A stretch of 64,000 nt of DNA from a virus (lineage: Duplodnaviria; Heunggongvirae; Uroviricota; Caudoviricetes), in IMG/VR virus record IMGVR_UViG_3300003691_000003, positions 14,097 through 78,096 of that record. One strand, written 5' to 3'. Under the pieces are notes generated by a model that saw only the letters and a list, made by a program, of their open reading frames with translations, made no database searches and had not been told where the DNA came from. Each line of letters starts with the position of its first letter. The stretch's first letter is position 1. Positions 1-17,745 of this stretch are shown here, piece by piece. A program made the translations under genes and the position numbers.

Positions 1-39
1 AACTAAAGGGTATTCGTTTACCAAATAAAATATTAGGCA

Positions 40-3000
40 TTACTTCTTACCGGTTATCTTTATAGGGGTATTAACATCTATAGTACCTTTCTTCAAAGCC
101 TTTATAGCTGCACCTTCAGTTTTAAACTCTACAGTTTTTTGGTCCTTATTAGGTTCTGTTAAATGAACTGATCCTAGAATAGCTTCATGGCCAGGAGCAA
201 ACATGGCGTATCCATATCCTTTTCTAGCATCACTCAAATGATTAGTAGGCATCATCTTTTTCTTTGCTTCATCTACGGCTTCAGGAGTCATGGGTACAAA
301 GGTAGACATAGCGTCACCGTCGTAATCAGCAGCAAAGCCCGGTAAGTGCAATGGGTTCAACCCTATAGTCTTACCATCGACTGGTACAGGGAACATAGCC
401 ATTAGGTTAGTTCTCATGAGAGTAGGTGCCCTGTTAACAATAACTGGAACATCTTTTATTACTGCGTTAAATGCACTTTGAGCTGCGGTGTTGCGAGATT
501 CGTATGCCTTCTTAGCTTCAGGTCTACTGTAGCCTAATCTAGACAAATAACGTTCTATGTGGAATCTATACATCTCCCATAGTCCTTCCTTAGGATACTT
601 AATTTCGTTAAATCCTACATCTGGTGCAGCGTATATAGTTCCACGTCCAGAGAAATCCTGTTTCTTTTTAAGTATCTTATCTTGAAACATTCCTGTCTTA
701 GGGCCTTTAGTTCCAGATATTTGCTTAAGTATACCTTTGAGATCTTTACCTCTAACTGATCCAGAAATAGCATCTCCCATTCCCAGTGTAGCTTTTAGAG
801 CCTTATACATTCCGGCTCTTTCCTGAGTTAAGTATTCTGGAGAAATTTCGTTTATCAACTTTGACGTAGGAGAATCTACTAGCATATGATCTTTATAAAA
901 AGAGTTTATATCCGCATACTCTAGCTGGTTACCACCTTTATTTATCACAGGTCTCATGTTCGGAGGGAGTACTGGAATATTACGCAGTACGTAAGCATCT
1001 TTAGGATGCACTCCTGTGTTTAGCGATCCTTTTAGAAACTTAGCCTTTTTGATGTATGCGTTACGTCTAGATACAGCCGTAGCTTCTAAGGATCCTGTTA
1101 CTGATTCCTTTAGCTCTTTATCTACATCTATGTCTTCTAACATTGCCTCAAAAGCAGCACCGCTTACTAATGGTTCTTTTTCGGTATCGTCAGCTGCCTT
1201 CTTCAACAGGCCAGATCCTATAGTACGAACTGTAGTATCAGTTGCAGTATCAATTATGGAGTAGTGTCCTTTGCCATGCTTATTAACTCCCATAGCTCCG
1301 CTAACTATGCCATCGAATTCTTTCTTGTTCAACCCTAATATAGATTTCAGAGGTGTTTCAAACATAGGGTTAACCATGGGTTCTGCTAACTCATAGTGAC
1401 TCCACTTCTCACCTTTAAGTCCACCAGTTATACCTATGTCGAACAGTCCGCCTTTCTCAGGTTCTAAGTTTTTAGAACTAAGAAGCTTAGGGGTTTTTAT
1501 CACCCCGTTAGACATTTGTAAAATATCATGATCCGTCATTGGAGTAGCCTGAAGTACACCGTCTTTATTCTTAACATTAACTCCAGAGGCTTTGAGGTAA
1601 TCAAAGAACCTCTTAGACGCAAAAGTTTGCTTAGGCTTTGGAAGAGGTCTTCCACCTATGAAGCTATCCCAGAAGTCTGAGTTTTCCTCCGACTTTATAG
1701 TACCTATTTCTTTCAGGTTCTTTCTAGCATTGGATCCAAGTAACCCAAGGAATTCCATATACCCTACGCTCTTTGCACTTCTTTCACCACCCTTAGTTGG
1801 CTGGCTGTATGCATCATATCCGCCTACGCTACGAGCAGAATAATTGGAGTCGGTTGTCTTATATAACTTTAAGAAATACTGAGGTCCGGCCAACGCCTTT
1901 CCTAACGCCTTCCCCGTAGTAGGATCTACTATAGTATCGGTATCACTTAAGCCTAGTTCTTTTAGCTCAGACATAAGAGCTTTAATGTTACTCTTGTTTT
2001 CATAATTCTTAACCATGTAAGGAGAGCCTTTTTTATCAGCAATCTTACCGGCCACTGTTTCCATGACTTGTCCGAAGTTTATTCTACTAGTTACAGATGC
2101 AGGATTTAGCAATATATCTACTGCCTTGCCTGTAGTCTCGCTTATTGGCATATCATGGTCTTCTATTACTTTAGAAATTACACCTTTATTGCCGTGTAGC
2201 CCAGTTAGTTTATCACCTATTTCTAATGGCTTTACCGAGCGTGCAAGTATGCGAACATTCTTAGTCTCAGTATGTACATCTACTATTTCACCAGGCTCAT
2301 CGTGTTCCCAGTACTTAACTACTAATCGATAAGGATTTACCAGTATCTTGTTCAAGTTGCCCAGTACCTTATCCTCAGGAGTGACTTCTCTTTTTTCTAG
2401 AACTGCAAATACTGCGTCTCCATGTTCAAGTCGAGTACCTTTTATCACGAACCCTCTCTTATCCAGCTTCTTGAGTTGGTCAGGAGTTAACTTGCCAGAA
2501 GAATATCGTTTGAATATTTCTTTATTAGCAACTGTGTCTGCCCTCATAACATAATCATACTTGTACGAGTGTAAGCTGTTTAAAGATTTAGCAGCAGATC
2601 TGCTTATGACTAAACCATCTTCGTGGTTAAAACCTTTCCATGGTAGATAAGCACTGTACAGGTTTAACCCTAGGGCTAACTTCCCGTCTTTAGTGTAGTT
2701 ATTATCAGACAGTATCTGCCCCTTTTTAACTTTATCTCCTACTTTCAGCCCAGTAGGACTATCGTCCAAAAATCCCTTATTGTTAAAAGGTAGGCTTTTG
2801 ACAAAGTGTTCTGTATGTAACTTACCGTCTTTATCCTTTATAGCCATATACTTATTTGTTATCTTTGATACTATTCCGGAAGTAGGAGATATAGTACTTA
2901 TGTGATGACCTAGGGCATCCACGAAAGGCTTATGATTTTCGTCTAACGTTTGTACTATAGGTGCTTCTCTATTTTGTAATGACAATGCTTGGGGTATGGC

Positions 3001-4560
3001 CTTACCAGCCATGGTTAACCTGCCAGGGTGATTACTGTTTAGGAAAGGAACCAAGTTAGTTGTAATAGTGTACATATCCGCTGCATCTGCCAGCCAATAT
3101 TTAACTTTAGATCTGGGTACCATCTTAATCTTACCCTTATCTTGAGCATGTACTGATCTACCTTTCTTTTCTTTTTCTCCTGGAAATCCTACAGTGTTCT
3201 GCATCATTTCTACAGACGTTAGGTAGTGCTGCTTACCTGAGTTGTCTATAACTCTGGCGTACATATTGCCTTCTTTGTCTCTTCTAGCATTAACTGTGAA
3301 TCTCTGATCCACACCTACGCTGGCTGATTCCGGAGTTCTACTCGGATCTATGATGCCTAAATGGGATGGATCTATATTACGAGCCCCATCTGGTATGGAC
3401 TTATCATCTTTCACTCCACCTTCGCCTGGGCCTACAATAGTTAACTTGCCTACGCTTTCTAAGCTTTCTATAGGGTTAGTCTCCGTAGGAGCAGAAGATA
3501 GTGGAGATCTGAGTATGAAATCGGTAAAGATCTTGGTGTAAGGCTTTACGTGTATAGCGCTTTTAATCTTAGGATTTTCTTTTTTTATACGTTCCAGATT
3601 AAACGTAAGTTTATTAGTAGCCTTGCTTACCGTCTCATGGCTTCTCTCAGAATTAAATCTGCGCTCTATGAAATCAGATAGATTCTGTACACGCTTGAAC
3701 TGGAGAGAGTCTCGGTTATCTTCTTCTCGTTCTCCTTTGTACACTTTAACTAAATTGCTTATAGCCTTTACTATGACGTTTCCGCTAACATTAGTATGAC
3801 TGGCACCTAGCGTAATCTTTGTTGTGCTGGGATCTAGCTTTGTAGATTCTAAGGATAAACGAAGGGCTTGTATTTTTTCTTCCTTAGAGGCTTCTGCATT
3901 TTGATCTTTTCTAGGAACCATCTTTAGATACAAAGAGTTTATAGTCTTCTTATCAGTAGCGGCTGCCTGTGAGTTCTTAGACCAGATCTCAGAAGGTACA
4001 TACCTTTCCACGGAATCTCGTCCCATGCTAAATATATCAGTGAGGACAGGGCCCAGTAATGACTTAGTTCCTTTGACATCTATATAGAATAATTGATTCT
4101 TAGGATTCAAAGTTATACTGAAACTTTGACCTGATCCTGTATTAAACTGAGCCTCGAAAGTACCGTCGTCTTTAGCTCTAGAGTATACTCCAGGCTTGAG
4201 GAGTACTAAGTTAGCAACTGAATAATTGTTACCTTTGTACATGACCGTATGCTTTCCAGTCACGTGGAACGAATCCGCCAAAGGGAAATTCTTTTCAGAA
4301 TCAACTACCTTGTTAGTAGCCTTATCTATAAGTTGAAGATCCCCTTTTATAGGGTACGTTAAAGACTTTGACTTGAGGATAGCGTTCTTCTCGTCTCTAT
4401 GATCAAACGCTTTTTTGTCTACATGCACGTTTGCCACGGTCAATTTAAAGTCCCTATTCTCTATAGGGAACTGCTTGGCAATACCTGCTATCATTGACCT
4501 ATCTACATTCTTGCTAATATTAGCAGGGCTTTCATAAATAGGAGTAGTTCCTCTAGTCAT
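40..4560 (-). CDS. Single-chain, minimal multisubunit-type RNA polymerase (fused beta / beta-prime homolog). Probably virion-associated. It lacks the C-terminal beta-prime elements.
   Basis: Residues ~780-860 read [56 protein letters not shown]. This matches the RpoB C-terminal double-psi beta-barrel almost residue for residue (GDK.[39 protein letters not shown]..ET). Residues ~1415-1430 read [16 protein letters not shown], matching the RpoC Mg-binding loop NADFDGDQMAVHVPLT. Both motifs lie in one frame, beta first. The ORF ends ~85 aa after the DxDGD loop. It sits beside the portal-like and tail fiber genes on the same strand. Confidence 0.8.
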   Translation of the reverse strand: [1506 protein letters not shown]

Positions 4561-4575
4561 TAATAATATCCTCTA

Positions 4576-4890
4576 TTACAATTTTTGGGTTGGAGATTTT
4601 TCTAGATAGGTTATTACTATCCAGTAATTGCTTTCAAATGCCTGGGTTGACCTATCGATTATGATGACCTCTCCATTACCGTTCAGTCCTCTAGTCAATA
4701 TGCTTTCTGCCATACTTAGATCATCTAAGTCTGCTTCATCTCCTATATTACCTCTGAATATCTTACAGTTATATTCGCTGTAGTTAACTTCAGAAACGTT
4801 AGTAGGGTTATCAGGAGTCATGCCAGGCATGCCCCCTATTTCTTCTCTAGCAGTTGGCGTTTTAAAAACGTCAGAATTTACGCTACTCAT
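4576..4890 (-). CDS. hypothetical protein in the structural module
   Basis: 104-aa ORF, same strand and tightly spaced between the RNAP and the portal-like gene. No recognisable motif. Confidence 0.5.
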   Translation of the reverse strand: MSSVNSDVFKTPTAREEIGGMPGMTPDNPTNVSEVNYSEYNCKIFRGNIGDEADLDDLSMAESILTRGLNGNGEVIIIDRSTQAFESNYWIVITYLEKSPTQKL

Positions 4891-4905
4891 TACACTCTCT
4901 CCAGG

Positions 4906-6780
4906 TTACATGCTTTTAGGTTCGGACAGTTTGCCCTTACTCTTTTTCTTAATAGGTTTCTTTTCTTCTGTAGCTTTCGGCTTAGTATCTTCTTTTACTA
5001 TAGGATCTGGGCTTTTAGCTTCTGCATCGCTTTCTTTAGCAGCAGTAGCTTCCTCTGGGGCAGCAGGTGCCTCCATTCCTACTTCAGCAGATTCAGTTGC
5101 GTTCATCAAGGTTTCAGGGTCTATACCATACGTCGGCAATAACTGAAGAACCATGTTAGCCATAGCCTCATCCTTGCGAACAATCTGAACTAACATGTTT
5201 CGTCTGGCATCTAAAGAAGCGGATGCTACCTGATGAGTTAGGTCATGAGCCTGAGCCTTGGCGTCTTCAAATCCACTATCACTATCTGCATCATCAGAAG
5301 TATTTCTATTCTTTAAGAACCTGGCTATTTCTATGCCCTTCTCGGCTTCTATCTCACTAGATGCCTTAGCTATAGAATCATCCTTCTTGCGTTCAAGCTC
5401 TTCTTTATAATCCATTCCAAATGCTTCGAATAGAGTACTCATAGAACCTTCTCCATTGAGAACCAACTCGGACAATAGTTGCTTAGCTTGTAAATCATCA
5501 GTAAGTTTGAATGGGGTCATAGTAGTTTCTACTTTTTCTATATTCAAGTAAGAACTAATTTTTACAAACACCCAATCCACTAAATTTTGAATCTGAGCCG
5601 TATACTGATTCATGGTATTTTCGAGCATGCGAAGACCTACTGTAGAACTCGTCCAATTAGTAGTTCCACTGAGTAATTCTAGAGAAACACCTAGACCTAA
5701 GAGCATAGTTTCTTCAGCCTGTTTTATCTCAGGTGACACTAGTAAACTCTTACCTTCTCCTCCTAAGTTCTGGTAGCCTAGGGGAACAGGAGATATAAGT
5801 ATGTGGTTAGGGTCAGATTTATGCTTTTTTAGAGCACTCTCTATTTTCTTAGAAAAGCCCGCCAAGCTCATACTGACCACTGGGTCTCCGTTTGCACTCT
5901 GACCTTGTGGAAATACTGCCCTTAGAGGAGCTAGATAATCTGTAGCTATCGCTTCGTTAGCCTTTCTTAGAACTGCTTGATAAAATACTAATGAGTACAT
6001 GCTTATGATCGGAGGTAATCCCAATCCTTCCAGTACGCTACCCATGGATATATTTTTGAGGTGGAATAGATTCTTACTATCGAACTTAAAGTCTTTACCT
6101 TCTTTCACCGCTTCTACCATACCCCAAGGTATTGAATTTACGAATAACTTATCTCCTTGTTGTATCTTCCTTTTAACTGTTCCAGGTATCTGATAGTAGT
6201 ATTCTGACTCCCCAGTTATAGGGTTATGATTAACGGATACATTTTCAGGGGACCACTTAATAAGGTTTATATCATCTATATCTAACGATTTAACATCGTT
6301 TATACTAAAGACTACTTTATCATTACACCCAGGGCACACTCCGGTGAATGAGTATTTAGTGAATCTTGCAAAGTCCGCATTGACACTGTTGTAGCTAGTA
6401 GTACACTTAGGGCATACAAGGTTTCTTTGTATAGGGAAGTATACCGACAGGAATACATTGCCTATTGTATAGAAGTCAAAGCCTGCATCACATATCTTAT
6501 TCTTTAAATCTAGGCTTCTAACTATATGTTCGTATTTCTTCTTCAGTTCGATATTCTTAGTATCGTGTACGAAAGTAGTTATAGGGTACGTGGATAGCTT
6601 ACGTATAACCTCAGTTATAGTAGGGGACTGTACAGTTATATACCTAGACCACTTAATTACATCATGTAAGTTACGTGGAGTAAACTGGTTTGCAATGTTG
6701 AACCAAGGGTTAGGTGTAGTACCTACTCCGAATTGTTCGAACATGCTACCGCCAGTGTTCAAGTGAGGAGGGACAGCCAT
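4906..6780 (-). CDS. large virion structural protein, possibly portal
   Basis: 624-aa ORF in the structural block upstream of the tail fibers. It has an internal CPKC..CPGC zinc-ribbon insertion and an acidic/Lys-rich Ala/Glu/Pro C-terminal tail. Size and position fit a portal, but no diagnostic motif was recognised. Confidence 0.35.
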   Translation of the reverse strand: MAVPPHLNTGGSMFEQFGVGTTPNPWFNIANQFTPRNLHDVIKWSRYITVQSPTITEVIRKLSTYPITTFVHDTKNIELKKKYEHIVRSLDLKNKICDAGFDFYTIGNVFLSVYFPIQRNLVCPKCTTSYNSVNADFARFTKYSFTGVCPGCNDKVVFSINDVKSLDIDDINLIKWSPENVSVNHNPITGESEYYYQIPGTVKRKIQQGDKLFVNSIPWGMVEAVKEGKDFKFDSKNLFHLKNISMGSVLEGLGLPPIISMYSLVFYQAVLRKANEAIATDYLAPLRAVFPQGQSANGDPVVSMSLAGFSKKIESALKKHKSDPNHILISPVPLGYQNLGGEGKSLLVSPEIKQAEETMLLGLGVSLELLSGTTNWTSSTVGLRMLENTMNQYTAQIQNLVDWVFVKISSYLNIEKVETTMTPFKLTDDLQAKQLLSELVLNGEGSMSTLFEAFGMDYKEELERKKDDSIAKASSEIEAEKGIEIARFLKNRNTSDDADSDSGFEDAKAQAHDLTHQVASASLDARRNMLVQIVRKDEAMANMVLQLLPTYGIDPETLMNATESAEVGMEAPAAPEEATAAKESDAEAKSPDPIVKEDTKPKATEEKKPIKKKSKGKLSEPKSM

Positions 6781-6928
6781 ATTTATTATTTACCTAAAGT
6801 AGTTGGTTTGCAGATAGTATATCATGGTGTTAAATACTTGCATAGTTCCATAGACTGATTTTAACTCAAAGTACAAGAAACCACGCCCATAAAATAACCC
6901 TATATTATTCAATAATTTAGGTGCGGTT

Positions 6929-6953
6929 TGGTATAAGTATTGTGAAGGGAATA
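6929..6953 (+). promoter_or_regulatory. extended -10 phage promoter copy 1 (TGGTATAAGTATTGTGAAGGGAA)
   Basis: Matches the 18-copy consensus TGGTATAAGTAtTATGTAGaGAAAC, upstream of 7010. Confidence 0.5.
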
Positions 6954-7009
6954 ACAACTATTCCTATTACTCAACGCAAAACCAACAGCATGAAAGAGGA
7001 GAAACTATC

Positions 7010-7279
7010 ATGGCTACTAAAAACAACGAAACAAAAAATACTGCAAAGAACGAAGCAACTGAAGAATCTGTAACTGTAAGTGAGCGTATTGCACAGGCCC
7101 GAGAAGGCCGAGCAATGTCCGCTGCAGAAACTTCAATCAAGCTTGCAGCTTACGTAGGCGGTCTAGTATCGTTCGTAACTCTAGCGGTTGCAGGAGTTCA
7201 AAAAGTAACAAATCTATATGGATCTGATGAAGATTCTATGGAAATGGCTGGTGCTGTGGATGATGCGGATACTCTGTAA
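7010..7279 (+). CDS. small hypothetical protein with one predicted TM helix
   Basis: 89-aa ORF with an AGGAG-like RBS (aaagaggagaaactatcATG). It has a hydrophobic stretch LVSFVTLAVAGV and lies downstream of promoter copy 1. Confidence 0.5.
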   Translation: MATKNNETKNTAKNEATEESVTVSERIAQAREGRAMSAAETSIKLAAYVGGLVSFVTLAVAGVQKVTNLYGSDEDSMEMAGAVDDADTL

Positions 7280-7302
7280 TCATCTCCAGTAACATCTAAG
7301 AA

Positions 7303-7326
7303 GTCAGGGATTACCCTGACTTTTTA
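7303..7326 (+). terminator. rho-independent terminator
   Basis: GTCAGGG-ATTA-CCCTGAC followed by TTTTT. Confidence 0.6.
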
Positions 7327-7361
7327 TTTACTATGAACTTTTTCAATTGGAGATAATAATA

Positions 7362-7730
7362 ATGAACGATATATTAACGGATGAACTATGCGTAGAAGTA
7401 GTGTATAGAGAGATCAAGAAGAACATGATCGATGATCCCGTATTGAGAGAAGCGGAATCTAGTGCACAGACCAGAGTCCTACAAATGGTTAAAGAATCGT
7501 TAGAAGTAAGAGGAGTAGACATACGCTCCGAACAAGGTAAGGCATACGTGTCGTACATCCTACGTGAGTTGGGGTGTGGAGGCGACTACAAGTACGAAGT
7601 ACCATCTCATAATAGAAGAATAACAGATAATTTTAAAGTAGAGTCAGCGTACTCTTTATTCACAACAACAATATTACACAGCATATTTAGAAAGAATAGA
7701 AAAGCATCGGACGTCCCTGTCTCCTCTTGA
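7362..7730 (+). CDS. hypothetical protein
   Basis: ORF with a GGAGAT RBS 7 nt upstream of the ATG at 7362. The ORF track starts it at 7347. Confidence 0.5.
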   Translation: MNDILTDELCVEVVYREIKKNMIDDPVLREAESSAQTRVLQMVKESLEVRGVDIRSEQGKAYVSYILRELGCGGDYKYEVPSHNRRITDNFKVESAYSLFTTTILHSIFRKNRKASDVPVSS

Positions 7731-7765
7731 ATGTAAAGACCGATGTTGACTAGGGAGAGGGTAGA

Positions 7766-7797
7766 TGTAATAATCTACCTTTCTTTTTTTAGCTAGG
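7766..7797 (+). terminator. terminator-like hairpin with the conserved flank CTTTCTTTTTTTAGC
   Basis: GTAGAT-gtaataa-ATCTAC then CTTTCTTTTTTT. Confidence 0.4.
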
Positions 7798-7804
7798 ATA
7801 AGTA

Positions 7805-8167
7805 ATGGACATAACATTTAGTAACCCCAATATTCATGATTTCTTCAATAACGTTAAGGGTAGTACCCCTCCATTGGCAGAGTTTAAAGAGGCCATGTCA
7901 AAACCATTACTGCCTGGGAATTTCATACTAGAGATAAAAGTACTAACTGAGACCATAGTTAAACAGATGAGTAGGCAACAGATAGGGGAGGGTATAACTA
8001 AGAGGTTAATACAGCTTACCAATAGGTTAACTGCTAGAAAAATAGCCTATAACGCACTTATAGTTGCAGAAGAGAGGAGTTCCTCTGTGGAAGATAAGCT
8101 TCTAAATAACATACTAGAAGCTCTCCGTGACCTAAGGTTCTTACTGCTTAAAATACTGCGTAGCTAA
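7805..8167 (+). CDS. hypothetical protein
   Basis: 120-aa ORF following a terminator-like hairpin at 7766-7797. Confidence 0.45.
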   Translation: MDITFSNPNIHDFFNNVKGSTPPLAEFKEAMSKPLLPGNFILEIKVLTETIVKQMSRQQIGEGITKRLIQLTNRLTARKIAYNALIVAEERSSSVEDKLLNNILEALRDLRFLLLKILRS

Positions 8168-8833
8168 TTATGGAGTCCCGATAGCCACATGCAGGTTTAT
8201 AGTTGCCAGTAGTATATTTGCAGTATTTGCTATTTCTCTTATTTTTAAGTTAAGTACAACAGTATTTTCGAAAGTGCTTTGAGTTTGCTGTATGTAGAAG
8301 TCTAAGTCAATTGAGAAGGTTGTCCAGGTGTCCGTGTCCCCATGCATGGCCGTTCCAAGTATAGCTAGTCCCGAAAATTTAGTAACATTATATTCGAACT
8401 CAGAAGATACTAGTCCAGTCTTAGTATCTACCCAATCCCCTATATCCACGTCGTTACCACCTATATACGCAGTTGTTGTATCGCTGGCATTACGTATTAT
8501 ATCTCCTCCTGTTCTGAATATAATACCTGCTCGTACTGAACCAGGGTCAGTTATATCTACTCCTTGGGCTATTAAGGTACCTAGACTAGCCGGGACACCA
8601 GGGGGAGTGGTACCTATTTCCGCAAACAAAGTTTTTATATCCGCAGATAGTGAGTTTTGGAAGCCAGTATTAGCCACAGGTGCAGTGCCAGCAGACACCT
8701 CTCTAAAAAGAGTTGCTATGTCATTTCCGGCAGTATCCTGAATGCCTACATTAGAAATGGGCGTAGCCCCGTTTATAGGAGCTAGTATAGTATCTAAGTC
8801 AGCCCCTGAGCTGTCGAGTAATCCGGTAGCCAT
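8168..8833 (-). CDS. tail fiber tip / receptor-binding protein, paralog A
   Basis: 221 aa. The N-terminal ~75 aa (MATGLLDSSGADLDTILAPINGATPISNVGIQDTAGNDIATLF...) are nearly identical to the adjacent 8838..9494 product. The C-terminal two thirds diverge. It sits directly downstream of the tail fiber gene. Confidence 0.6.
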   Translation of the reverse strand: MATGLLDSSGADLDTILAPINGATPISNVGIQDTAGNDIATLFREVSAGTAPVANTGFQNSLSADIKTLFAEIGTTPPGVPASLGTLIAQGVDITDPGSVRAGIIFRTGGDIIRNASDTTTAYIGGNDVDIGDWVDTKTGLVSSEFEYNVTKFSGLAILGTAMHGDTDTWTTFSIDLDFYIQQTQSTFENTVVLNLKIREIANTANILLATINLHVAIGTP

Positions 8834-8837
8834 ATCG

Positions 8838-9494
8838 TTAAGGTGTTCCTATTTGAATGTTCAAGGTTATATCTGTAGAGACTATATTTGTAGTATTTCC
8901 TATTTCTCTTATTTGCAAAGCTACAGTGCAAGACTCTACGGTATCGTCAAGAGAGCTAGATAAGTAAAAACTTAATTCGGAGCTAAAAGTAGTCCAGGTA
9001 TTAGTGTTTCCATGTAGCACAGTGCCGGAGGGTACATCCCCGAAAGTCAGTGTCGCATTATACTGAAAATCACTCGATGATAGCCCAGTCTTATCTGCAA
9101 CCCAGTCCCCTGCGTCAGCTCGTGGTCCACCTGAAGACGATGTTGTACTGGAGTTATTTATAACATCACCATCAACTTCGAATATTATCTCGCACCTAAC
9201 CGACCCTGGGTTGGTCAAGTCTTGAGCCAGAGGCGTGAAAGTACTGTCAACCGCTAATAGTGGAGGTACTGTCCCTATCTCTGCAAACAAAGTTTTTATG
9301 TCAGCCGCTAACGAATTTTGAAATCCAGTATTAGCCACAGGTGCAGTACCCGCAGCAACATCTCTAAATAGGGTCGCTATATCGTTGCCTGCAGTATCCT
9401 GAATACCTACGTTAGAAATAGGCGTAGCTCCGTTTATAGGAGCTAGGATAGTGTCTAAATCGGCGCCTGCGCTATTGAGTAACCCTGTAGCCAT
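8838..9494 (-). CDS. tail fiber tip / receptor-binding protein, paralog B
   Basis: 218 aa. Shares its N-terminus with 8168..8833, with a divergent C-terminus. It starts 2 nt after the stop of the tail fiber gene. Confidence 0.6.
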   Translation of the reverse strand: MATGLLNSAGADLDTILAPINGATPISNVGIQDTAGNDIATLFRDVAAGTAPVANTGFQNSLAADIKTLFAEIGTVPPLLAVDSTFTPLAQDLTNPGSVRCEIIFEVDGDVINNSSTTSSSGGPRADAGDWVADKTGLSSSDFQYNATLTFGDVPSGTVLHGNTNTWTTFSSELSFYLSSSLDDTVESCTVALQIREIGNTTNIVSTDITLNIQIGTP

Positions 9495-9495
9495 A

Positions 9496-11304
9496 TTACT
9501 TACCTTCTAGATCTGTTACCTTAGTGTGTAACTCATTTATCGCATTGACCAGAACACCCACAAGGTGACCATAGTCCATGGAAGCAACTTTTCCATCTTT
9601 TCTTGAAACGATTTCAGGAAGAACCTTCTCCACCTCATCCGCAATAAGACCGATATCGGTTTTGCCACTAAATTCTCCGAGTCCTTGCGCCCAGTTATAT
9701 CGAACACCTCTGAGGCTATTGCATATATGTAGAGCATCATCAATAGTATGGATGTCATCTTTAAATTCCTCTGCAGAAGTTGCCTGAACTGTGAGTCCGG
9801 TAAGAGCTCCAGTAAATGCCCCAGTTGTACCTGTCAATCCACCTGTTAAAGTTCCCCCTGATAACTTCAAGTAAGAAGAGGATACGCCTGCCGGAGTAAC
9901 GGCTCGTCCGTTATCTGAACCTGCTGCTACCTCTGCGTTAGTAGCTAATTCTACAACTCCAGATGCCGTTGCAGATGCTGCTGGCAAGTAGCCTGGGTTA
10001 TTAATTGCAAACGATAGCCCTGCCGGAGTCACTACCCGCAATGCATCACTACCGGTATCAGTCTCAGTGTTAGTGGCTAGTTCTGCAACACCTTTTACCG
10101 AGGTGGAAGCGTCACTAACTGCAGCTCCTGTATTATCTAAAACAAACTTTAGAGATGCCGGAGTTACTGTGCGAGTAGTATCGGTTCCTGTAAGAGATTC
10201 TGCGTCTGTTGCTAATTCTGATTTACCAGCAGTCGTAGTAGTTGCTGCGGACACTGCTGCATTGGCATCAAAGTTACTAAGTGCAAATCCTAACCCTGCT
10301 GGAGTAACTGCAGTGTCAGTGGCTGATCCAGTATCGGCTTCTGCGTTAGTAGCTAACTGAACGGTACCATTGGCACTAGTAGTAGCAACTTGTCCGTTAA
10401 ATACATCCAATAGGGTAGCTGGAGTTATTGCTCTACCTGCATCCGTTAAGGCTAAGGCTTCTGCGGTGTTAGCAAGTTCTATAATTCCTGAAGCAGATGC
10501 ACTGGCGACTATTGTACCTAACACTGAAGGAGTAATGACCCTAGTAGCATCTGAAAGAGCTATGCCTTCAGCAGAAGTAGCTAATTCAACTATGCCTTCT
10601 ACTGAGTCTGTAGCAGAAACAACTCCGCCACCGTTTCCAGCAGCTGACCCTATGCCTTGTACGGCTAGAGTTGTTACGCTGTTAGAATCAATTTGTATAT
10701 CGCCATTAGCGAGCGTTACTACGAACACTCCGGTCCATCCAGAATCTGCCGTAGGAGTTATCTGTGCACCAGTAGTTGCTGCTGCACCAGTCTTAACACC
10801 TATCTCAATTACTCCAGTCATTATAGATCCTAGAGCACTAGGATTGAATGGGTCATAAGTAGGTAGGTTGTCAGTACCCGTAGTTACATCTACGAATCTA
10901 ACTTGTATAAGACTATCTGCTGATTGACCGCCAGTTACTGGAGGTACAAATGTAGGAGATGTATATTCATCAACTAATAGGGCTAACTTAGTTATAAGTC
11001 TAGCATCTATTCCGCTTATAGCTTCTTTAGTTGAGAAGAATCCCTGACTAAGAGTAAACGATAAAGTTGAAGGGGTGTATCCTATATCCGACACTAATAA
11101 GTCGGAATCACCTATGAGTCCACTAGTAAGCAATCCAGTAGTAACACCGTTTACAGTAGCAGCGTTTATAGCAGCATCTACACCGGATCCTAGGATTATA
11201 GCGTTATTATGTAAATCCGTTAGTGGACGGTTATCCACTGTGTAGTAGTAAGGATCTAGTGACGTAAAGAACTGAACAGTATTAAAAAGGTCTTGTATGG
11301 CCAT
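9496..11304 (-). CDS. tail fiber protein with phage fiber repeats and a C-terminal S74 intramolecular chaperone (autoproteolytic) domain
   Basis: Six ~35-aa repeats of the form G(V/I)xELAT(N/S)AE..G(S/T)D..R.VTPA(G/S)L, the phage tail fibre repeat type. The C-terminus DDIHTIDDALHICNSLRGVRYNW...GLIADEVEKVLPEIV...DYGHLVGVLVNAINEL matches the intramolecular chaperone / peptidase S74 domain of tail fibers and endosialidases. Confidence 0.8.
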   Translation of the reverse strand: MAIQDLFNTVQFFTSLDPYYYTVDNRPLTDLHNNAIILGSGVDAAINAATVNGVTTGLLTSGLIGDSDLLVSDIGYTPSTLSFTLSQGFFSTKEAISGIDARLITKLALLVDEYTSPTFVPPVTGGQSADSLIQVRFVDVTTGTDNLPTYDPFNPSALGSIMTGVIEIGVKTGAAATTGAQITPTADSGWTGVFVVTLANGDIQIDSNSVTTLAVQGIGSAAGNGGGVVSATDSVEGIVELATSAEGIALSDATRVITPSVLGTIVASASASGIIELANTAEALALTDAGRAITPATLLDVFNGQVATTSANGTVQLATNAEADTGSATDTAVTPAGLGFALSNFDANAAVSAATTTTAGKSELATDAESLTGTDTTRTVTPASLKFVLDNTGAAVSDASTSVKGVAELATNTETDTGSDALRVVTPAGLSFAINNPGYLPAASATASGVVELATNAEVAAGSDNGRAVTPAGVSSSYLKLSGGTLTGGLTGTTGAFTGALTGLTVQATSAEEFKDDIHTIDDALHICNSLRGVRYNWAQGLGEFSGKTDIGLIADEVEKVLPEIVSRKDGKVASMDYGHLVGVLVNAINELHTKVTDLEGK

Positions 11305-11403
11305 TGAAGTATCTCGTATTATCGATAATTAATTATAAGGAACTGGTGTTCCTGTTAGAGCTCTGGTACTATTTTAGTATGATTAAAACATTGGAGAGCA
11401 TAT

Positions 11404-11886
11404 ATGATAACTAGATATGGAATTACTTTCAACTATAATGGTGATAGATTACGTTGGATCTGGCCTTGGGCCCGAAAACAAGGCCTTAAATACGTGTCTA
11501 TGAAGACAGTGGATAGGTATAAGTCATTATCACACTACTGGTCTTTAAGGGCAACATTAGAGGAGACTATGAGAAGAGATAAGATGATGGGGTTTGACTT
11601 AGTAAGTATGGTCGAGGCGTACGTGTCTGTTAAATCACCTAGTGGTAAAGTAGTAGTGGTACTGGGGCAAAAGCTACTTAACAAAATAAAAGGCAATGTG
11701 TTGCTTGATAAGCATAAAGTTCAGACCTTAGGCGTATTTGATTCAGTAATGCTAAGAGTAGATGATAGCAGAGATGGGGTAGATCTTATGCGTAGCATAG
11801 ATCCGGAGCTTGGCATAGCTATGCTGTTTACAGATGGCAAGGTAGTTCAAACTAACGTCAATAATGACGTAAAGCTTATTTCTTAA
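11404..11886 (+). CDS. hypothetical protein
   Basis: 160-aa ORF, the first plus-strand gene after the structural block. RBS ggagagcatatATG. Confidence 0.5.
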   Translation: MITRYGITFNYNGDRLRWIWPWARKQGLKYVSMKTVDRYKSLSHYWSLRATLEETMRRDKMMGFDLVSMVEAYVSVKSPSGKVVVVLGQKLLNKIKGNVLLDKHKVQTLGVFDSVMLRVDDSRDGVDLMRSIDPELGIAMLFTDGKVVQTNVNNDVKLIS

Positions 11887-11899
11887 AGATCTAAAAAAC

Positions 11900-11924
11900 T
11901 GGTATAAGCCTTATGTAGATACTT
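11900..11924 (+). promoter_or_regulatory. extended -10 promoter copy 2
   Basis: TGGTATAAGCCTTATGTAGATAC upstream of the SNF2 helicase. Confidence 0.5.
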
Positions 11925-11943
11925 ATTCATAGGAGGATTAGAA

Positions 11944-13935
11944 ATGAAAGTATGTTTTTCGAATAATAAAAAAAGGATTCTTTTTAGACCTAACCCTAAA
12001 AACCCTATGGAGATACGAGCATTACGCAAGTTTGCAGGGGGTACTTTAGAGTCTAATGGGGATATATCATGCCCTGCAAAAATCAACGTAGCGTATAACT
12101 TGGTAAGACGGTTTAGTAAGAAATTCAGCAAGTACCTATCTATTGATACTGACGTAGATAAGTTTATATCCAAAGAATTCAAGCTTAAGGCTATACCAGA
12201 TAGCTTCAGTTACTTCACAACTCCTTTAAAACACCAAGAGATAGCCCTTAGGTATTTGTATACTGTTGGGTCTGCTGGTATTCTTTTAGATCCTGGCCTA
12301 GGCAAGACTAAGGTAATCTTGGATTATATGGCTCTTATGAAGTTTGGTAAGTCTCTTATAGTATGTCCTAAGGCATTACTCTTTGTGTGGGAAGAGGAAA
12401 TAGAGAAACATAGACCTGATTTAACTGGGTATATTGTTAAATCTACTACCTGGGGAATGCAGATAATAAACTTAGAAAAGAAACGTTTTCCAGAAGCTAC
12501 GGAGCGCAAGAAAGTACTAAAAGAAGGGAAGTACGACGTAGAGGAGCGCATAGTAGTATTAAAAGAAAGGTGGGAACTCCTCAAGGAGAAGAAGCTCGCT
12601 AAGCTACGTGAAGGCTGGGACGATGATAAGTATAATATAGCTAAGCATGACATCATAATAGTTAATTACGATAAAGTAGTTACTGGGCAGTATTACTTTG
12701 AGAAATTAGGTTTCGACTTTATAAGCGTAGACGAAGGGTTGATCAAAGACCCTAAGACAGAACGTACCAAAGCAGTGACAAGGCTAGGCAAGAGAATACC
12801 CTACCGATCTATTATGTCTGGGACATTAATAAACAACTCCCCACTTGACGTATTCGCACCCGTTCGTTTCCTAGAACCCTCATTGACAGGATCTGCTTTC
12901 ATAAAGTTCAGAGATAGATACTGTACAGTCATAAAGCCTAAGGCTAACCCTAATGCTGTCAAACAATTCACTGGATCGTTTATAGCTGGGTATAACGACG
13001 TAGATGAGGTTCGCTCTATACTGGAATCTTGCAGCATAGTTATGTCTAAGGATGAATGGTTGGATTTGCCTCCTAAGAAATTCCATAATATATATTGTGA
13101 TATGTCGGATGAACAGCAGGTTCATTACGAAAACCTAGCTACGAATTATATAACTAAGGTTGGAGAAGATTATGTAGAAGTAGATTCGGCCCTTACAGTG
13201 ATGTGTAAGTTATCTCAGATACCTAACGGATTTATATACATATATAACGAAGAAGAATTAGACGAACTAGTCAACGATGACGATAGTGAGTTTGATGACT
13301 TGGATTTAGTACCAGAAGATTCAGTAGAGGATGTGCCTGAGGTAAAGCGAATACGTAAGACTCACTTCTTTAAAGCTCAACCGAAGATAGATAAGTTCAG
13401 AACTTTGTACAGAGAGAAGCTACATAACCGAAAGTTTATAATGTGGTATAACATGTCTGCTGAAGCTGAAATAATAGAGAAAGAGTTTGCTAGTAGTGGC
13501 GTAAGCTATTTATCTATAAAAGGTGGGGAGAAAGATACTGGCGGTAAGGTTAAACGATTTAACACTGACCCTTCTATACAGATACTATTATGTCAGGCTA
13601 AGTCGGTTAACTACGGAATAACGGTACTAGGATCTACGCCTGAGAAGCTAGAAGCTAATGGCATACAGGTAGTGCCGGATATAAACCCTTCAGTATTTAC
13701 CCAAGTGTTTTATAGTCTCAACTATAGCTTAGAATTGTTCTTGCAACAGCAGGATAGGTGTCATCGCATAGGTCAAGATAAGGAAGTAGATTACTATCTA
13801 TTACTTACAAGAAATACGACCGATATGGATATACTAAGTAGACTGGATGAGAAAATGAACATACGTGCCAGCATACTGGTAGACGTTTTAAATTTATTAA
13901 AAGAGAGGATAGGTAACAAAGGTGGCGACATATAA
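11944..13935 (+). CDS. SNF2-family DNA-dependent ATPase / helicase
   Basis: Motif I LLDPGLGKTKVIL, motif II DEGLIK (DExH-like), and the C-terminal SNF2 signature QQQDRCHRIGQDKEV (motif VI, Q..R.HRIGQ). Confidence 0.8.
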   Translation: MKVCFSNNKKRILFRPNPKNPMEIRALRKFAGGTLESNGDISCPAKINVAYNLVRRFSKKFSKYLSIDTDVDKFISKEFKLKAIPDSFSYFTTPLKHQEIALRYLYTVGSAGILLDPGLGKTKVILDYMALMKFGKSLIVCPKALLFVWEEEIEKHRPDLTGYIVKSTTWGMQIINLEKKRFPEATERKKVLKEGKYDVEERIVVLKERWELLKEKKLAKLREGWDDDKYNIAKHDIIIVNYDKVVTGQYYFEKLGFDFISVDEGLIKDPKTERTKAVTRLGKRIPYRSIMSGTLINNSPLDVFAPVRFLEPSLTGSAFIKFRDRYCTVIKPKANPNAVKQFTGSFIAGYNDVDEVRSILESCSIVMSKDEWLDLPPKKFHNIYCDMSDEQQVHYENLATNYITKVGEDYVEVDSALTVMCKLSQIPNGFIYIYNEEELDELVNDDDSEFDDLDLVPEDSVEDVPEVKRIRKTHFFKAQPKIDKFRTLYREKLHNRKFIMWYNMSAEAEIIEKEFASSGVSYLSIKGGEKDTGGKVKRFNTDPSIQILLCQAKSVNYGITVLGSTPEKLEANGIQVVPDINPSVFTQVFYSLNYSLELFLQQQDRCHRIGQDKEVDYYLLLTRNTTDMDILSRLDEKMNIRASILVDVLNLLKERIGNKGGDI

Positions 13936-14278
13936 TGTTTATGAATCAACTTATGGTACTAGTACTTCTGGAACTGGTACTGATTGGGGTAGTGGTACAG
14001 CCACAGGTACTACTTATGCTAGTATCTCTGGTGGAACATATCAGACAGTCAATTGGGAAACAGAAACCGAAAGAGTAGTATTGGACAACGAAAGGAACAT
14101 GGTCTTTAGGATGCTCCCCCAAAAGAAACATAGTTGGATGGGTTCTATTTTTCCAAAAAAGGGACTCAATAAGGCAGACGTAAGAAAGATATTCATAGGA
14201 AGAAAATTTATAATCAAGGCTACTAGAGGTCACCCTCCAAGCTCTGACCACATGCTATCAAATTACTTATTTGAGTAG
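13922..14278 (+). CDS. hypothetical Gly/Thr/Ser-rich protein (uncertain)
   Basis: 118-aa ORF overlapping the helicase stop. Low-complexity N-terminus GTSTSGTGTDWGSGTATGT. A competing antisense ORF exists at 13946..14251. Confidence 0.3.
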   Translation: MATYNVYESTYGTSTSGTGTDWGSGTATGTTYASISGGTYQTVNWETETERVVLDNERNMVFRMLPQKKHSWMGSIFPKKGLNKADVRKIFIGRKFIIKATRGHPPSSDHMLSNYLFE

Positions 14279-14283
14279 ATTCT

Positions 14284-14308
14284 TGGTATAAGTAATATGA
14301 GGAGAAAT
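14284..14308 (+). promoter_or_regulatory. extended -10 promoter copy 3
   Basis: TGGTATAAGTAATATGAGGAGAAAT. Confidence 0.5.
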
Positions 14309-14311
14309 ATT

Positions 14312-14521
14312 ATGAATACTTTGATCAAATACATACTACTAGTAATTGCGGTTCTCGGTTTACTTCTTGGAGGAGGAGGGTGGATGTTCAGCTTAGGCTT
14401 ACAGATACTAATCGCACCGCTAATGTTCTTGGGATATATATTCTTGTTCCTATTCGGTCTATACGCTGCAGCCAATGTAGTAGCTCTACTATTTGGTGGC
14501 TTTTCAAACAAAAGAGGGTAG
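14312..14521 (+). CDS. small membrane protein
   Basis: GAGGAG RBS then ATG at 14312. Two hydrophobic helices (LIKYILLVIAVLGLLLGGGGWMF...LMFLGYIFLFLFGLYAAANVVALLFG). Lies downstream of promoter copy 3. Confidence 0.5.
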   Translation: MNTLIKYILLVIAVLGLLLGGGGWMFSLGLQILIAPLMFLGYIFLFLFGLYAAANVVALLFGGFSNKRG

Positions 14522-14551
14522 CTCCTCTTTTTTATATGGTAAAAAATAATA

Positions 14552-16126
14552 ATGAAAGATTCAATACTCGACTACTTCCCATTCGAGGAAGCTCGCGCAT
14601 CTCAAAAACAAGTTATACCCTTAATACAAAAAGCGTACGAGGACGGCAAGAAAGTAGTAATACTAGAAAGCCCTGTAGGTTCTGGCAAGTCTGCTATGGC
14701 TATGACTATAGCTAGATTCTATGGTAATAGTCACATACTTACTCCTAGAAAGGCGCTGCAAGATCAATACTACAATGATTTTAAAGACCATGTCACTGTA
14801 ATGAAAGGCAGGGCAGCTTATCCGTGCTATTGGGAACTAGGACACACGTTTGATAAATCCTATTATCAAAAAAATATAGAGCTTGGTAAACCCTTATATA
14901 TGAGCAAAGATATAATAACTACTGCAAGCGGTCCATGTAGCCATGCAAAAAACGGTAAAGAGAACTTCCAGAAATGCATGGAAGTACATACCATTTGCCC
15001 ATACGCTAGGGCAATAGACGTGGCTAACGATTCAGATCATATAATTCATAACCTGCACGGGTTTATATACCAAGCTAACTTCGCAGAAAGATTCGAGGTT
15101 AGGGACTTGCTAGTGGTTGATGAGGCTCATGATCTCGAAGGTATAGTACGTGGCTTTACTTCTAGGACGATAACAGTGGTTAAGCGACTTAGCCAAATGC
15201 CAGGAGTAACTATCCCCGAGTTCAAGCACTTAGATGAATGGATAGATTGGTTTCAGACAGAAGACTTTACTCCTAGGGACAGAAAATCGAAAGAAGACTT
15301 CGAGGAGTCTGTGGATAAGCTGGAAGCATCTAAGATGTCAGAGTTTGTCGTGGAGGTAGATGAGGATAGTTATAAAAGAACTACCAAGTTCAAGTTCACT
15401 CCTATAAGCATAGGAACTATGCCGCACTCTCTCATACTGAGCTTCGGTAAGCGTGTGTTGCTTATGTCTGGGACGATATATAACAAAGATACATTCTGTA
15501 GAAGTATAGGCATAAAGCCAGATGATGCTCATTTCATTAGAGTAGGTAGTTCCTTTCCCGTAGAGAAAAGGCCTATATACATGAAGAGGAAGTATCTACA
15601 CGATACGTCTCACGCAGGGTGGTCAAGAAATTTAACAGAAATTGGTATAAGTATACTGAAGATACTTGACGTCTACTCAGATGTCAAAGGCATAATACAT
15701 GTATCTTCTTACTCCGCTATGAACGATATTATGAGTACCGTAAAAAGTAGTAGGTTAATTGCACACGACAGAGAGGATGCTATAAATGGGTTGGATAATT
15801 TTTTTAAATCAGAAGGTAACGGAGTTCTAGTGTCACCTATCTGTCATCAAGGGGTAGACTTTAAAGATGATAGAGCAAGATTTCAAATAGTAACAAGAGT
15901 GCCTTATGCTAATACAGGGGACGTGTTTATACATCATAAAGTAAAGACGGATTTCCCATGGTATAACTTGCAGGCTCTAGTTAAGTTTGGTCAAATACTA
16001 GGCAGAGTTAATCGCTCAGAATCAGATTATGGAGCTACTATTCTACTAGATGAACGTTTCGAGAAATTCATCAACAGGAATCGTAGACTTATACCGAATT
16101 GGATTTTAGAAGCAATTCTAAAATAA
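14552..16126 (+). CDS. DinG/Rad3 (XPD)-like Fe-S DNA helicase
   Basis: Walker A ESPVGSGKS and DEAH box VVDEAHDL. A four-Cys cluster (C...C...C...CPY) sits between motifs I and II as in Rad3/DinG Fe-S helicases. C-terminal helicase motif QGVDFKDDRARFQIVTRVPY. Confidence 0.8.
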   Translation: MKDSILDYFPFEEARASQKQVIPLIQKAYEDGKKVVILESPVGSGKSAMAMTIARFYGNSHILTPRKALQDQYYNDFKDHVTVMKGRAAYPCYWELGHTFDKSYYQKNIELGKPLYMSKDIITTASGPCSHAKNGKENFQKCMEVHTICPYARAIDVANDSDHIIHNLHGFIYQANFAERFEVRDLLVVDEAHDLEGIVRGFTSRTITVVKRLSQMPGVTIPEFKHLDEWIDWFQTEDFTPRDRKSKEDFEESVDKLEASKMSEFVVEVDEDSYKRTTKFKFTPISIGTMPHSLILSFGKRVLLMSGTIYNKDTFCRSIGIKPDDAHFIRVGSSFPVEKRPIYMKRKYLHDTSHAGWSRNLTEIGISILKILDVYSDVKGIIHVSSYSAMNDIMSTVKSSRLIAHDREDAINGLDNFFKSEGNGVLVSPICHQGVDFKDDRARFQIVTRVPYANTGDVFIHHKVKTDFPWYNLQALVKFGQILGRVNRSESDYGATILLDERFEKFINRNRRLIPNWILEAILK

Positions 16127-16142
16127 GTTACGGAGAATAAAA

Positions 16143-16633: not shown

Positions 16634-16646
16634 CCTTTGAGCTATG

Positions 16647-16676
16647 GAAGCCCACTAATCCTGGGCTTCATTTTTT
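16647..16676. terminator. bidirectional rho-independent terminator between convergent genes
   Basis: GAAGCCCA-ctaatcc-TGGGCTTC followed by ATTTTTT. Lies between 16442..16633 (+) and the sigma factor gene (-). Confidence 0.7.
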
Positions 16677-17440
16677 AGATAGTATTTTTTTAGCAACCTG
16701 ATAGCTTCACTTCGTTTAGCACGAACCATGTCTTTAGGCATGCTCATTTCCCTAGCAACAGACGCAGCTCTGCGTTCCTTGCCAGTATCCATGCCAAAAG
16801 TTAAGTATACAATTCTAGATAAGTCCTCTGGAAGAGTCGTCAATGCATTGTGTAGAAAGGTAGATTCTATTTCAGTTTCTATAGCACCTTCGAACGGATT
16901 TATTAGCTTTTCCGATTCTGTTACATCTTCAAAGAAGTAAGTTAGGTACCTGGTTTTAGATAATTCATTAAGATCCTTTCTGGCAACATCGGGGAAGCGC
17001 TCACACAGTTCATCCAAGGTAAGAGGTACTTCCCTTGAGTTCTGAGCCTTTAATATCCTGGTAGATAACTGCTGCTTCCATATAGGCAGGGCAACTACTC
17101 TCATCTGGGACATAGCCTTGAGCTGTCTCTGTAAAACCCACCAACCTGCATAGGTCAGGAACTTTACTCCAGTGTGGTGATCAAATTTATTGAAGCCCAC
17201 TAGCAAGCCTTCATTACCGGCAGCTATTAAGTCTTCGAATTGGTTCTGATCATTTCGGGAAAGGTCTTTTGCTTTTTTAAAAACATATCGCAAATTTGCT
17301 TTAATAACAACATCTCTGGCCCTACTGCGTTCTTTCTCAGGAAGGTCCTTGTTATAGTAAGTCTTAAATAGTTCTTGTTCCTCCTCACGACTAAGCATTT
17401 TTTGCTTACATATTTCGTCATAATATTTCGTGAGATCCAC
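16655..17440 (-). CDS. sigma-70 family RNA polymerase sigma factor
   Basis: Region 2: DLIAAGNEGLLVGFNKFD...GVKFLTYAGWWVLQRQL (compare DLIQEGNIGLMKAVEKFD..GFKFSTYATWWIRQAI). Region 4 HTH: ASVAREMSMPKDMVRAKRSEAIRLLKK. A lone minus-strand gene among plus-strand genes. Confidence 0.8.
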   Translation of the reverse strand: MDLTKYYDEICKQKMLSREEEQELFKTYYNKDLPEKERSRARDVVIKANLRYVFKKAKDLSRNDQNQFEDLIAAGNEGLLVGFNKFDHHTGVKFLTYAGWWVLQRQLKAMSQMRVVALPIWKQQLSTRILKAQNSREVPLTLDELCERFPDVARKDLNELSKTRYLTYFFEDVTESEKLINPFEGAIETEIESTFLHNALTTLPEDLSRIVYLTFGMDTGKERRAASVAREMSMPKDMVRAKRSEAIRLLKKYYLKNEAQD

Positions 17441-17744: not shown

Positions 17745-17745
17745 G

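Follow-up and report, generated by a model that had tools for sequence, protein, structure and literature searches.

The DNA analyzed here is a 64-kb window (64,000 nucleotides, positions 14,097 to 78,096) of IMG/VR virus record IMGVR_UViG_3300003691_000003, a member of the Caudoviricetes whose whole genome was judged from its relatives to be roughly 180 kb. At the left end of this window, an uninterrupted open reading frame (ORF) on the minus strand, with no internal stops, almost certainly encodes a subunit of a phage RNA polymerase in which beta is fused to the N-terminal half of beta-prime (beta-prime-N). As judged from its sequence, both active-center double-psi beta-barrels are carried by this one polypeptide. 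The results taken together are best explained if the fusion is the large subunit of a two-polypeptide, phage-encoded RNA polymerase core of the bacterial type, and we consider this probable. An earlier sequence-only reading of the same DNA had noticed the single 1506-aa ORF with its two polymerase motifs and had proposed the covalent fusion; its reading of the sequence was correct, its inferences were mostly sound, and the feature is conserved and looks functional. The gene itself is no discovery, as it is the ortholog of a published protein and a new member of a known, poorly characterized family in which the fusion is the norm.

Both motifs were present in the ORF. The beta-barrel motif stretch occupies residues 779-834 of the fusion and the Mg-binding loop residues 1410-1425; DYDGD follows HGNKG by 623 residues, and the C-terminus is reached 90 residues past DYDGD. 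Pfam domains were found in the order Rpb2_2 (199-291), Rpb2_3 (361-425), and Rpb2_6 (610-924, E 8e-52), followed on the beta-prime side by Rpb1_1 (1007-1249) and Rpb1_2 (1365-1436, E 1.3e-14). When the PDB was searched with phmmer, residues 74-996 matched bacterial beta chains (best E 2e-65) and residues 1131-1505 matched beta-prime chains (E 1e-41); cyanobacterial gamma chains were among the matches of the beta-prime N-terminal module. A family profile was built from 67 full-length homologs and aligned by hhalign to Salmonella RpoB and RpoC. Residues 20-1001 aligned to RpoB 46-1342 (E 2e-50, 963 columns) and residues 983-1504 to RpoC 2-554 (E 1e-38, 503 columns), and the identity of the fusion to bacterial beta and beta-prime was just 23-27%. 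Homology was continuous over residues 20-1504, so that the two motifs are not isolated matches, and the alignments support the covalent fusion up to about E. coli beta-prime 554. Beta extends to about residue 1001, and residue 1013 corresponds to residue 30 of beta-prime, which amounts to a direct join without a linker and with loss of the first dozen or so beta-prime residues. An AlphaFold2 model of residues 307-1506 (pLDDT 79.4, pTM 0.64) was confident across the junction, and a Foldseek search with this model matched bacterial beta chains (E 1e-48 to 1e-44).

The functional elements of both subunits are largely recognizable. The beta module retains the fork/D-loop region (PSRTPES), the ED pair (NHEDG), HGNKG, NPASVTSR, and a flap-tip-like helix, and is missing the lineage-specific inserts SI1 (225-343) and SI2 (938-1042) relative to E. 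coli. Its barrel motifs (the GxHGNKG lysines and the NPxxxxSR type) were 97-100% conserved in the family, with HGNKG invariant over the 67-member alignment. Likewise, the beta-prime module retains the lid, the clamp helices, a shortened rudder, switch 2, NRAPTLM, and DYDGD; the fusion reads AADYDGD and NRAPTLM for the cellular NADFDGD and NRAPTLH, and the D, D, G, and D of DYDGD were 100% conserved among the 67 members. The zinc-binding domain (E. coli residues 67-98, with four cysteines) is gone in all 67. The distance between the two motifs had been equated in the sequence-only reading with beta residues 1065-1342 plus beta-prime residues 1-460; the actual 623 residues are about 115 fewer, as a result of deletions that remove the zinc-binding domain and some of the beta C-terminal region. 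In the AlphaFold2 model, the clamp region forms two long helices (model H911-930 and H939-953). In the alignment, the flap-tip hydrophobics L901, L902, and I905 are retained as V, L, and L. In bacteria, the clamp helices are the main docking site of sigma region 2 and the flap tip is the docking site of sigma region 4. In the diverged rifampicin pocket, T replaces D516, S replaces H526, and T replaces S531; the phage polymerase is therefore probably insensitive to the drug.

The published ortholog is Gp206 of Arash, a Salmonella phage that is a myovirus of 180.8 kb (Yousefi et al. 2023, PMC10585845). Gp206 aligned to the fusion in one piece, with 53.5% identity over 99% of its length, and Vibrio phages D69, D148, and D181 (about 187 kb) had 51% identity; in all of them the polymerase (Gp206/Gp216 in Arash) is orthologous over 99% of the length and has the same beta/beta-prime-N architecture. 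In the Arash paper and in GenBank, Gp206 is named just "beta subunit", with no word on its being fused (PMC10585845), and none of the open-access texts searched described the fusion in phages. Nine Arash genes (gp193, gp195, gp196, gp197, gp198, gp199, gp204, gp205, and gp206) are colinear with window positions 55-20485, gp198 being a helicase. Arash and the Vibrio phages share the order portal gene, small ORF, and polymerase gene, with helicases and sigma nearby; Arash differs in that the gene after the polymerase lies on the opposite strand. A megablast of window positions 1-20000 against phage records gave no nucleotide-level match. When IMG/VR was scanned with the alignment, 75 related loci were recovered, many of them from contigs 130-190 kb long; a single-protein scan recovered one locus. 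Thirty-nine of these loci are at least 20 kb long, and counts among these long loci refer to 10-kb flanks.

It is exceedingly improbable that the fusion is an assembly or frameshift artifact or a captured fragment of cellular rpoBC. No support was found for either a frameshift or cellular contamination, and both were ruled out by the independent isolates, by the junction search described below, and by phage synteny. An equivalent single reading frame is present in Arash and Vibrio phage D69, both independent isolates, and in another 66 full-length homologs of 1480-1600 aa. Capture of a cellular gene is further opposed by the low identity to bacterial subunits and by flanking phage genes syntenic with those of Arash. 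To gauge how widespread the fusion is, a junction query of 301 residues (880-1180) was searched against 1.84 billion representative proteins, clustered at 50% identity. There were 1090 matches at E<=1e-3, 993 at E<=1e-10, and 444 at E<=1e-30; the family is large, widespread in the environment, and biochemically untouched. The best 150 matches all span the beta/beta-prime junction, except for one fragment. We sorted 149 representatives by local segment profiles: 60 had beta, beta-prime-N, and the C-terminal part of beta-prime (beta-prime-C) in one chain (about 2000-2600 aa), 57 had beta and beta-prime-N as in the window, 9 had beta and only the first ~110 residues of beta-prime, and the remaining 23 were other forms, mostly fragments without the beta N-terminal segment. 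Many relatives have a one-chain core of about 2000 aa. By these profiles, the beta/beta-prime junction is the hallmark of the family, and beta-prime is cut at differing places in its branches. The fusion had been called an unusual architecture, which holds relative to phages phiKZ and AR9; within a family of at least 444 clusters, it is the rule.

The fusion reaches about residue 554 of E. coli beta-prime and stops short of the bridge helix; neither this helix nor the trigger loop is in the ORF, in agreement with the earlier reading. A separate beta-prime-C protein of 606-647 aa was present in every relative examined. Arash Gp216 and its homologs in D181 and in the relatives L004 and L005 carry the bridge helix, the trigger loop, and the C-terminal cleft modules; they lack SI3 and otherwise match E. 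coli beta-prime 571-1393. This range complements the fusion because the fusion ends at about 554. The beta-prime-C gene was downstream of the fusion gene in all of them, at a distance of 0.6 kb in Vibrio phage D181, 1.9 kb in L004 (the closest relative, with 67% identity), 4.3 kb in L005, and 4.8 kb in Arash, and it was within 10 kb of the polymerase gene in 26 of the 39 long loci. By analogy with these relatives, a separate beta-prime-C partner is very likely to be encoded in the genome of this phage. Against this stands the result that the gene is not within the 64-kb window; it would be expected beyond the left edge. The identical protein is on record under NCBI WGS prefix JQIA01, on a contig of 78,096 bp; exact 52-nt patterns had no match in genome, viral, and metagenome collections. 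The next gene, which overlaps the polymerase stop codon and runs off the window, was considered as beta-prime-C and set aside: its 13 visible residues are unlike the N-termini of beta-prime-C proteins, and they are also unlike the 298-aa protein at the same position in L004. The sequence-only reading had suggested that a partner gene may lie just off the left edge; the separate partner is borne out by the relatives, but in these it lies 0.6-4.8 kb away and is not the next gene. The description of the enzyme as a single polypeptide is misleading here, as beta-prime-C is needed.

Packaging of the polymerase in the virion had been suggested from the position of the gene beside portal-like and tail-fiber genes. 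The gene does sit in a putative operon with the portal gene, beside a tail-fiber gene. A portal homolog was directly upstream of the polymerase gene in all 39 long loci and in 73 of the 75 loci overall. Mass spectrometry of Arash virions yielded 3516 spectra for Gp206, the most of any protein and above the major capsid protein, as well as 1210 for Gp216, 1148 for the SNF2 helicase Gp217, 517 for the helicase Gp197, and 467 for the sigma factor Gp10 (PMC10585845). These data from an ortholog with 53% identity back the suggestion, and we think it likely that the fusion protein is packaged in the virion of this phage. Two points weigh against it. The claim is extrapolated from an ortholog only 53% identical, and the Arash virion list also includes enzymes that are clearly not structural (ribonucleotide reductases, RNA ligases, and a kinase); its authors allow for carry-over of abundant proteins (PMC10585845). 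If carry-over also explained Gp206, the polymerase would be no part of the virion; it would be synthesized in the infected cell to serve middle or late transcription, and the Arash signal would be contamination by a very abundant protein. The many metabolic enzymes on the list, the authors' own mention of contamination (PMC10585845), and the origin of the proteomics data in Arash and not in this phage speak for that explanation, which we nevertheless consider unlikely. It is opposed by a spectral count for Gp206 that exceeds even that of the major capsid protein (PMC10585845) and by the constancy of the portal gene directly upstream. Only one polymerase set was found: the complete Arash genome was matched at a single place, and the window has one polymerase ORF. 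If early genes are transcribed without the host polymerase, the enzyme must come with the DNA.

The phage also encodes a sigma-70-family factor, as the sequence-only reading had stated. Its alignment to SigA/RpoD covers regions 2 to 4.2, and it is the ortholog of Arash gp196 (44.5% identity). The second sigma of Arash, Gp10, was detected in virions, and its gene has structural genes as neighbors. In P0135, a very distant family member with a complete fusion and an intein, a sigma gene lies 8 kb from the polymerase gene and adjoins a PAAR gene. The window contains a promoter-like motif, GGTATAAGTA, in 13 exact copies and 26 copies with at most 1 mismatch, nearly all on the plus strand and 20-40 nt ahead of a ribosome-binding site, GAGGAG. 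The extended form of the motif is (T)TGGTATAAGTA(T). TATAAGTA occurred 15 times on the plus strand and once on the minus strand, versus 2.8 expected. A lineage-conserved form of the motif, G(G/T)TATAAG(T/G/A)A, i.e. G(G/T)TATAAGNA, was found upstream of genes in Arash, D181, and loci L003, L004, L005, and L009. The motif resembles a -10 element but has G at the position of the sigma-70 -7 T, and T at -7 is near-invariant in sigma-70 promoters according to Feklistov and Darst (2011), as cited in PMC7598289. Canonical sigma-70 -35/-10 matches were depleted in window positions 28001-48000 (35 versus 57.1 +/- 8.2 in shuffles). The promoters had been described as host-type extended -10 promoters; this description is wrong because G replaces the near-invariant -7 T. 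The minus-strand structural genes, among them the polymerase operon, were examined for a promoter class of their own; the candidate ATATACTA, which lies upstream of the portal and sigma genes, was not enriched and was dropped. Separately, GTGTTAAA (TTTAACAC on the other strand) lies upstream of several small minus-strand genes, beside GGTATAAGTA motifs, in the divergent intergenic regions 32637-33900 and 43054-43140, and may be a second regulatory element. Terminator-like hairpins were mildly enriched in 28001-48000 (17 versus 10.4 +/- 3.4).

The chances that the phage polymerase depends on sigma seem to us evenly balanced. The retained clamp helices and flap tip, the co-packaging of sigma, and the single polymerase set favor a holoenzyme of phage core and phage sigma. 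So do the sigma gene found with the distant P0135 fusion and the recurrence of GGTATAAGTA-type motifs ahead of genes in the window and in relatives. The pairing is weakened by the clamp-helix tip, which is poorly conserved within the family and in which E. coli R275 is replaced, by the absence of the beta-prime zinc-binding domain, and by the finding of a sigma gene in just 9 of the 39 long loci, mostly at the edge of the flank. The sequence-only reading had instead seen two coexisting transcription machineries, in which case the fused polymerase would be sigma-free, or would use a non-sigma specificity protein, like the phiKZ/AR9 enzymes, and the phage sigmas would redirect the host core to phage promoters. 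The lost zinc-binding domain and variable clamp-helix tip fit this arrangement; moreover, region 2.2 of the phage sigma still largely has the canonical core-binding sequence (DLIAAGNEGL versus DLIQEG in SigA), and jumbo phages that have no polymerase of their own normally encode sigmas that take over the host core (PMC7598289, PMC7824862). However, the two core-contact residues that are most conserved in region 2.2 (Q and E in DLIQEG) are replaced by alanine in the phage sigma, the conserved motif has G where the host requires the -7 T, and canonical sigma-70 promoters are depleted. In addition, Arash virions contain sigma Gp10 along with the polymerase (PMC10585845), and sigma genes accompany the fused polymerase even in deeply diverged relatives. 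We regard two separate machineries as rather unlikely, and the phage sigmas may equally serve the phage polymerase.

We propose the following mechanism. The polymerase gene would be transcribed together with the portal gene, and fusion of beta to beta-prime would probably replace assembly assisted by an alpha dimer. The enzyme would be packaged in the capsid, injected, and start phage transcription independently of the host polymerase. Specificity would probably come from phage sigma-70-family factors docking on the clamp helices and flap tip, and these factors would read the G(G/T)TATAAGNA element. We propose only tentatively, at somewhat less than even chances, that these parts form one self-contained sigma-dependent system, in which a putatively alpha-free fused core is co-packaged with a phage sigma, injected, and reprogrammed by further phage sigmas to G(G/T)TATAAGNA. 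Such a system, if real, would be the first phage multisubunit polymerase shown to use true sigma-70-family factors and the smallest natural single-chain core of the bacterial type. An alpha-free core driven by phage sigmas would also offer a compact model for the assembly of bacterial-type cores and for sigma binding, as well as a possible orthogonal transcription system, probably rifampicin-insensitive. It would be a second independent route to host-independent early transcription, beside the phiKZ-type and N4-type virion polymerases.

The phiKZ and AR9 enzymes are likewise two-barrel phage polymerases related to cellular beta and beta-prime, with beta-prime split after the catalytic barrel and a linked SNF2-type helicase; one of the enzymes is in the virion (PMC7824862), where mass spectrometry also found the Arash ortholog of the fusion. 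However, they consist of 4-5 polypeptides, whereas beta is intact here and fused to beta-prime-N, and their proteins are far more divergent from bacterial beta/beta-prime than the fusion is. The phiKZ/AR9 phages have two paralogous sets, virion and non-virion, whereas one set was found here in the complete Arash genome and the 64-kb window; they also have no sigma factor (PMC7824862, PMC7598289), whereas this lineage does. The closest architectural analogue is the polymerase of yeast plasmid pGKL2, in which K2ORF6p is beta plus part of beta-prime, K2ORF7p is the beta-prime C-terminus, and a helicase is associated (PMC6211774). In this comparison, which is one of architecture, the pGKL2 enzyme differs in belonging to a eukaryotic cytoplasmic plasmid, in its archaeal-type split, which falls between regions a15 and a16 and not directly behind the catalytic barrel, and in being much more reduced. 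Its authors termed the fusion unique among RNA polymerases (PMC6211774), and the phage family contradicts this claim.

Cyanobacterial and plastid RpoC1 (gamma) and RpoC2 divide beta-prime as in the phage split, with the Mg-binding barrel in the N-part and the bridge helix and trigger loop in the C-part. The phage split lies ~65 residues before the cyanobacterial gamma/beta-prime split, the end of the fusion corresponding to gamma residue ~560 of 624-626, and cyanobacterial gamma is not fused to beta. The rpoB-rpoC fusions of Helicobacter and Wolinella are about 2890 aa long and work with alpha, omega, and host sigmas. They are bacterial-type and, as in the phage protein, the beta C-terminus is covalently joined to the beta-prime N-terminus (PMC1557499); these fusions are complete and cellular, whereas beta-prime in the window gene is cut after the catalytic barrel. 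Complete beta-beta-prime fusions likewise make up about half of the 149 phage-family representatives. The crAss-like gp66, YonO, and P23-45 polymerases also have both barrels in one chain, with little or no sequence similarity to beta/beta-prime beyond the motifs; the fusion, in contrast, has extensive beta/beta-prime similarity and needs a second subunit. The mReC polymerases of Weinheimer and Aylward (2020, PMC7481178) are from metagenomic tailed-phage contigs, and their beta/beta-prime are readily aligned to cellular ones. That paper does not mention a fusion, a beta-prime split, or sigma factors (PMC7481178). The beta and beta-prime homology of the fusion was also found with cellular-type profiles (Pfam, PDB), as holds for mReC contigs, and mReC and the fusion family are probably overlapping sets. 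The contig ids examined were not among the mReC polymerase contigs in the supplements, where we found only other contigs from one shared sample. The Arash capsid protein had no match to the mReC marker PF07068 and a weak match to PF05065 (E 0.0036), and the Arash terminase matched PF03237, the large-terminase family of mReC, at 23.9 bits versus a cut-off of 22; the window holds neither a capsid nor a terminase gene.

Coordinates of the polymerase gene, its parts, and neighboring features in the window (residue numbers are those of the fusion protein unless another protein is named)
Feature	Position	Strand	Evidence or remark
Beta/beta-prime-N fusion gene, probable large subunit of phage RNA polymerase	40..4560	-	1506 aa, ATG start, stop codon 40-42
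Beta module, residues 1-1001	1558..4560	-	= E. coli beta 46-1342; hhalign, Pfam, Foldseek
Beta-prime N-terminal module, residues 1002-1506	43..1557	-	= E. coli beta-prime about 20-554; hhalign, Pfam, PDB
HGNKG, residues 789-793, conserved lysines of beta double-psi beta-barrel	2182..2196	-	= E. coli beta 1064-1068 region
DYDGD, residues 1412-1416, catalytic Mg-binding aspartate triad	313..327	-	= E. coli NADFDGD 458-464
Beta-prime clamp helices (coiled coil), residues 1215-1261	778..918	-	= E. coli beta-prime 262-310, length unchanged
Flap-tip-like segment, residues 726-745	2326..2385	-	Aligned to E. coli beta 895-915
Deletion site of beta-prime zinc-binding domain, ~residues 1047-1051	1408..1422	-	32-residue gap in profile alignment
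Next gene, MPNILFGKRIPFS..., ATG overlapping polymerase stop (TAATG), runs off window	1..40	-	13 residues visible
Small 104-aa ORF between portal and polymerase genes, Arash gp205 ortholog	4576..4890	-	tblastn 39.5% identity
Portal protein gene, first of portal/small ORF/polymerase block	4906..6780	-	51% identical to Arash portal Gp204; weak PHROG portal match
GGTATAAGTA copy in divergent region upstream of portal operon	6930..6939	+	Faces away from polymerase gene
SNF2-family helicase	11944..13935	+	Pfam SNF2-rel_dom, E 8e-23
XPD/Rad3-like helicase, Arash Gp197 ortholog	14552..16126	+	Pfam Helicase_C_2 and DEAD_2; 38% identical to gp197
Sigma-70-family factor, 261 aa, regions 2 to 4, candidate specificity subunit	16655..17440	-	Pfam Sigma70_r2, PHROG 351
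Example promoter-like motif sites	6930, 14285, 15644, 28951, 32681, 33965, 34629, 43139, 45224, 48238, 53007, 57706	+	

The small ORF between the portal and polymerase genes had no Pfam or PHROG match. An SNF2 helicase homolog was within 10 kb of the polymerase gene in 38 of the 39 long loci. In Arash, the SNF2-family helicase gene gp217 (L001 23145-24563) directly follows the beta-prime-C gene, and a homolog was likewise placed in at least 5 IMG/VR loci; Gp217, which is abundant in virions, recalls the helicases packaged with the transcription systems of poxviruses and yeast plasmids. PAAR-motif proteins are encoded near polymerase or sigma genes in relatives (L004 15465-15743, L009 27211-27486) in keeping with a grouping of tail-tip or ejection proteins near the polymerase genes.

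Divided or interrupted forms of the gene were seen in several relatives. In a sister clade (L005 and L006), the fusion stops at about residue 1112, comprising beta and ~110 beta-prime residues, and a 633-aa ORF (L005 13339-15240, L006 11203-13104) precedes the remaining 385-aa beta-prime-N gene. The split point corresponds to a low-confidence loop of the AlphaFold2 model (protein residues 1116-1126), and the locus is flanked by EndoVII/HNH homing-endonuclease genes. A PHROG search assigned no function to the 633-aa protein of L005/L006 or to the 298-aa protein of L004; the 633-aa protein has weak similarity to window positions 51682-52326 (minus strand). Two ORFs in the window, 20755-21033 (plus strand) and 53881-54111 (minus strand), resemble the C-terminal domain of the EndoVII-like endonucleases of L005, with 35-49% identity. 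The polymerase gene of D181 (L002 10519-11467) and D148 is broken at about residue 515 by ~950 bp with a homing-endonuclease gene, probably an intron or other mobile insertion, and D69 is without it. LAGLIDADG inteins were found in distant members (P0127, P0128, P0135, and others), whose proteins are swollen to 1800-3700 aa; the inteins are at recurrent sites, one inside the beta barrel region and another just past the beta-prime DxDGD barrel.

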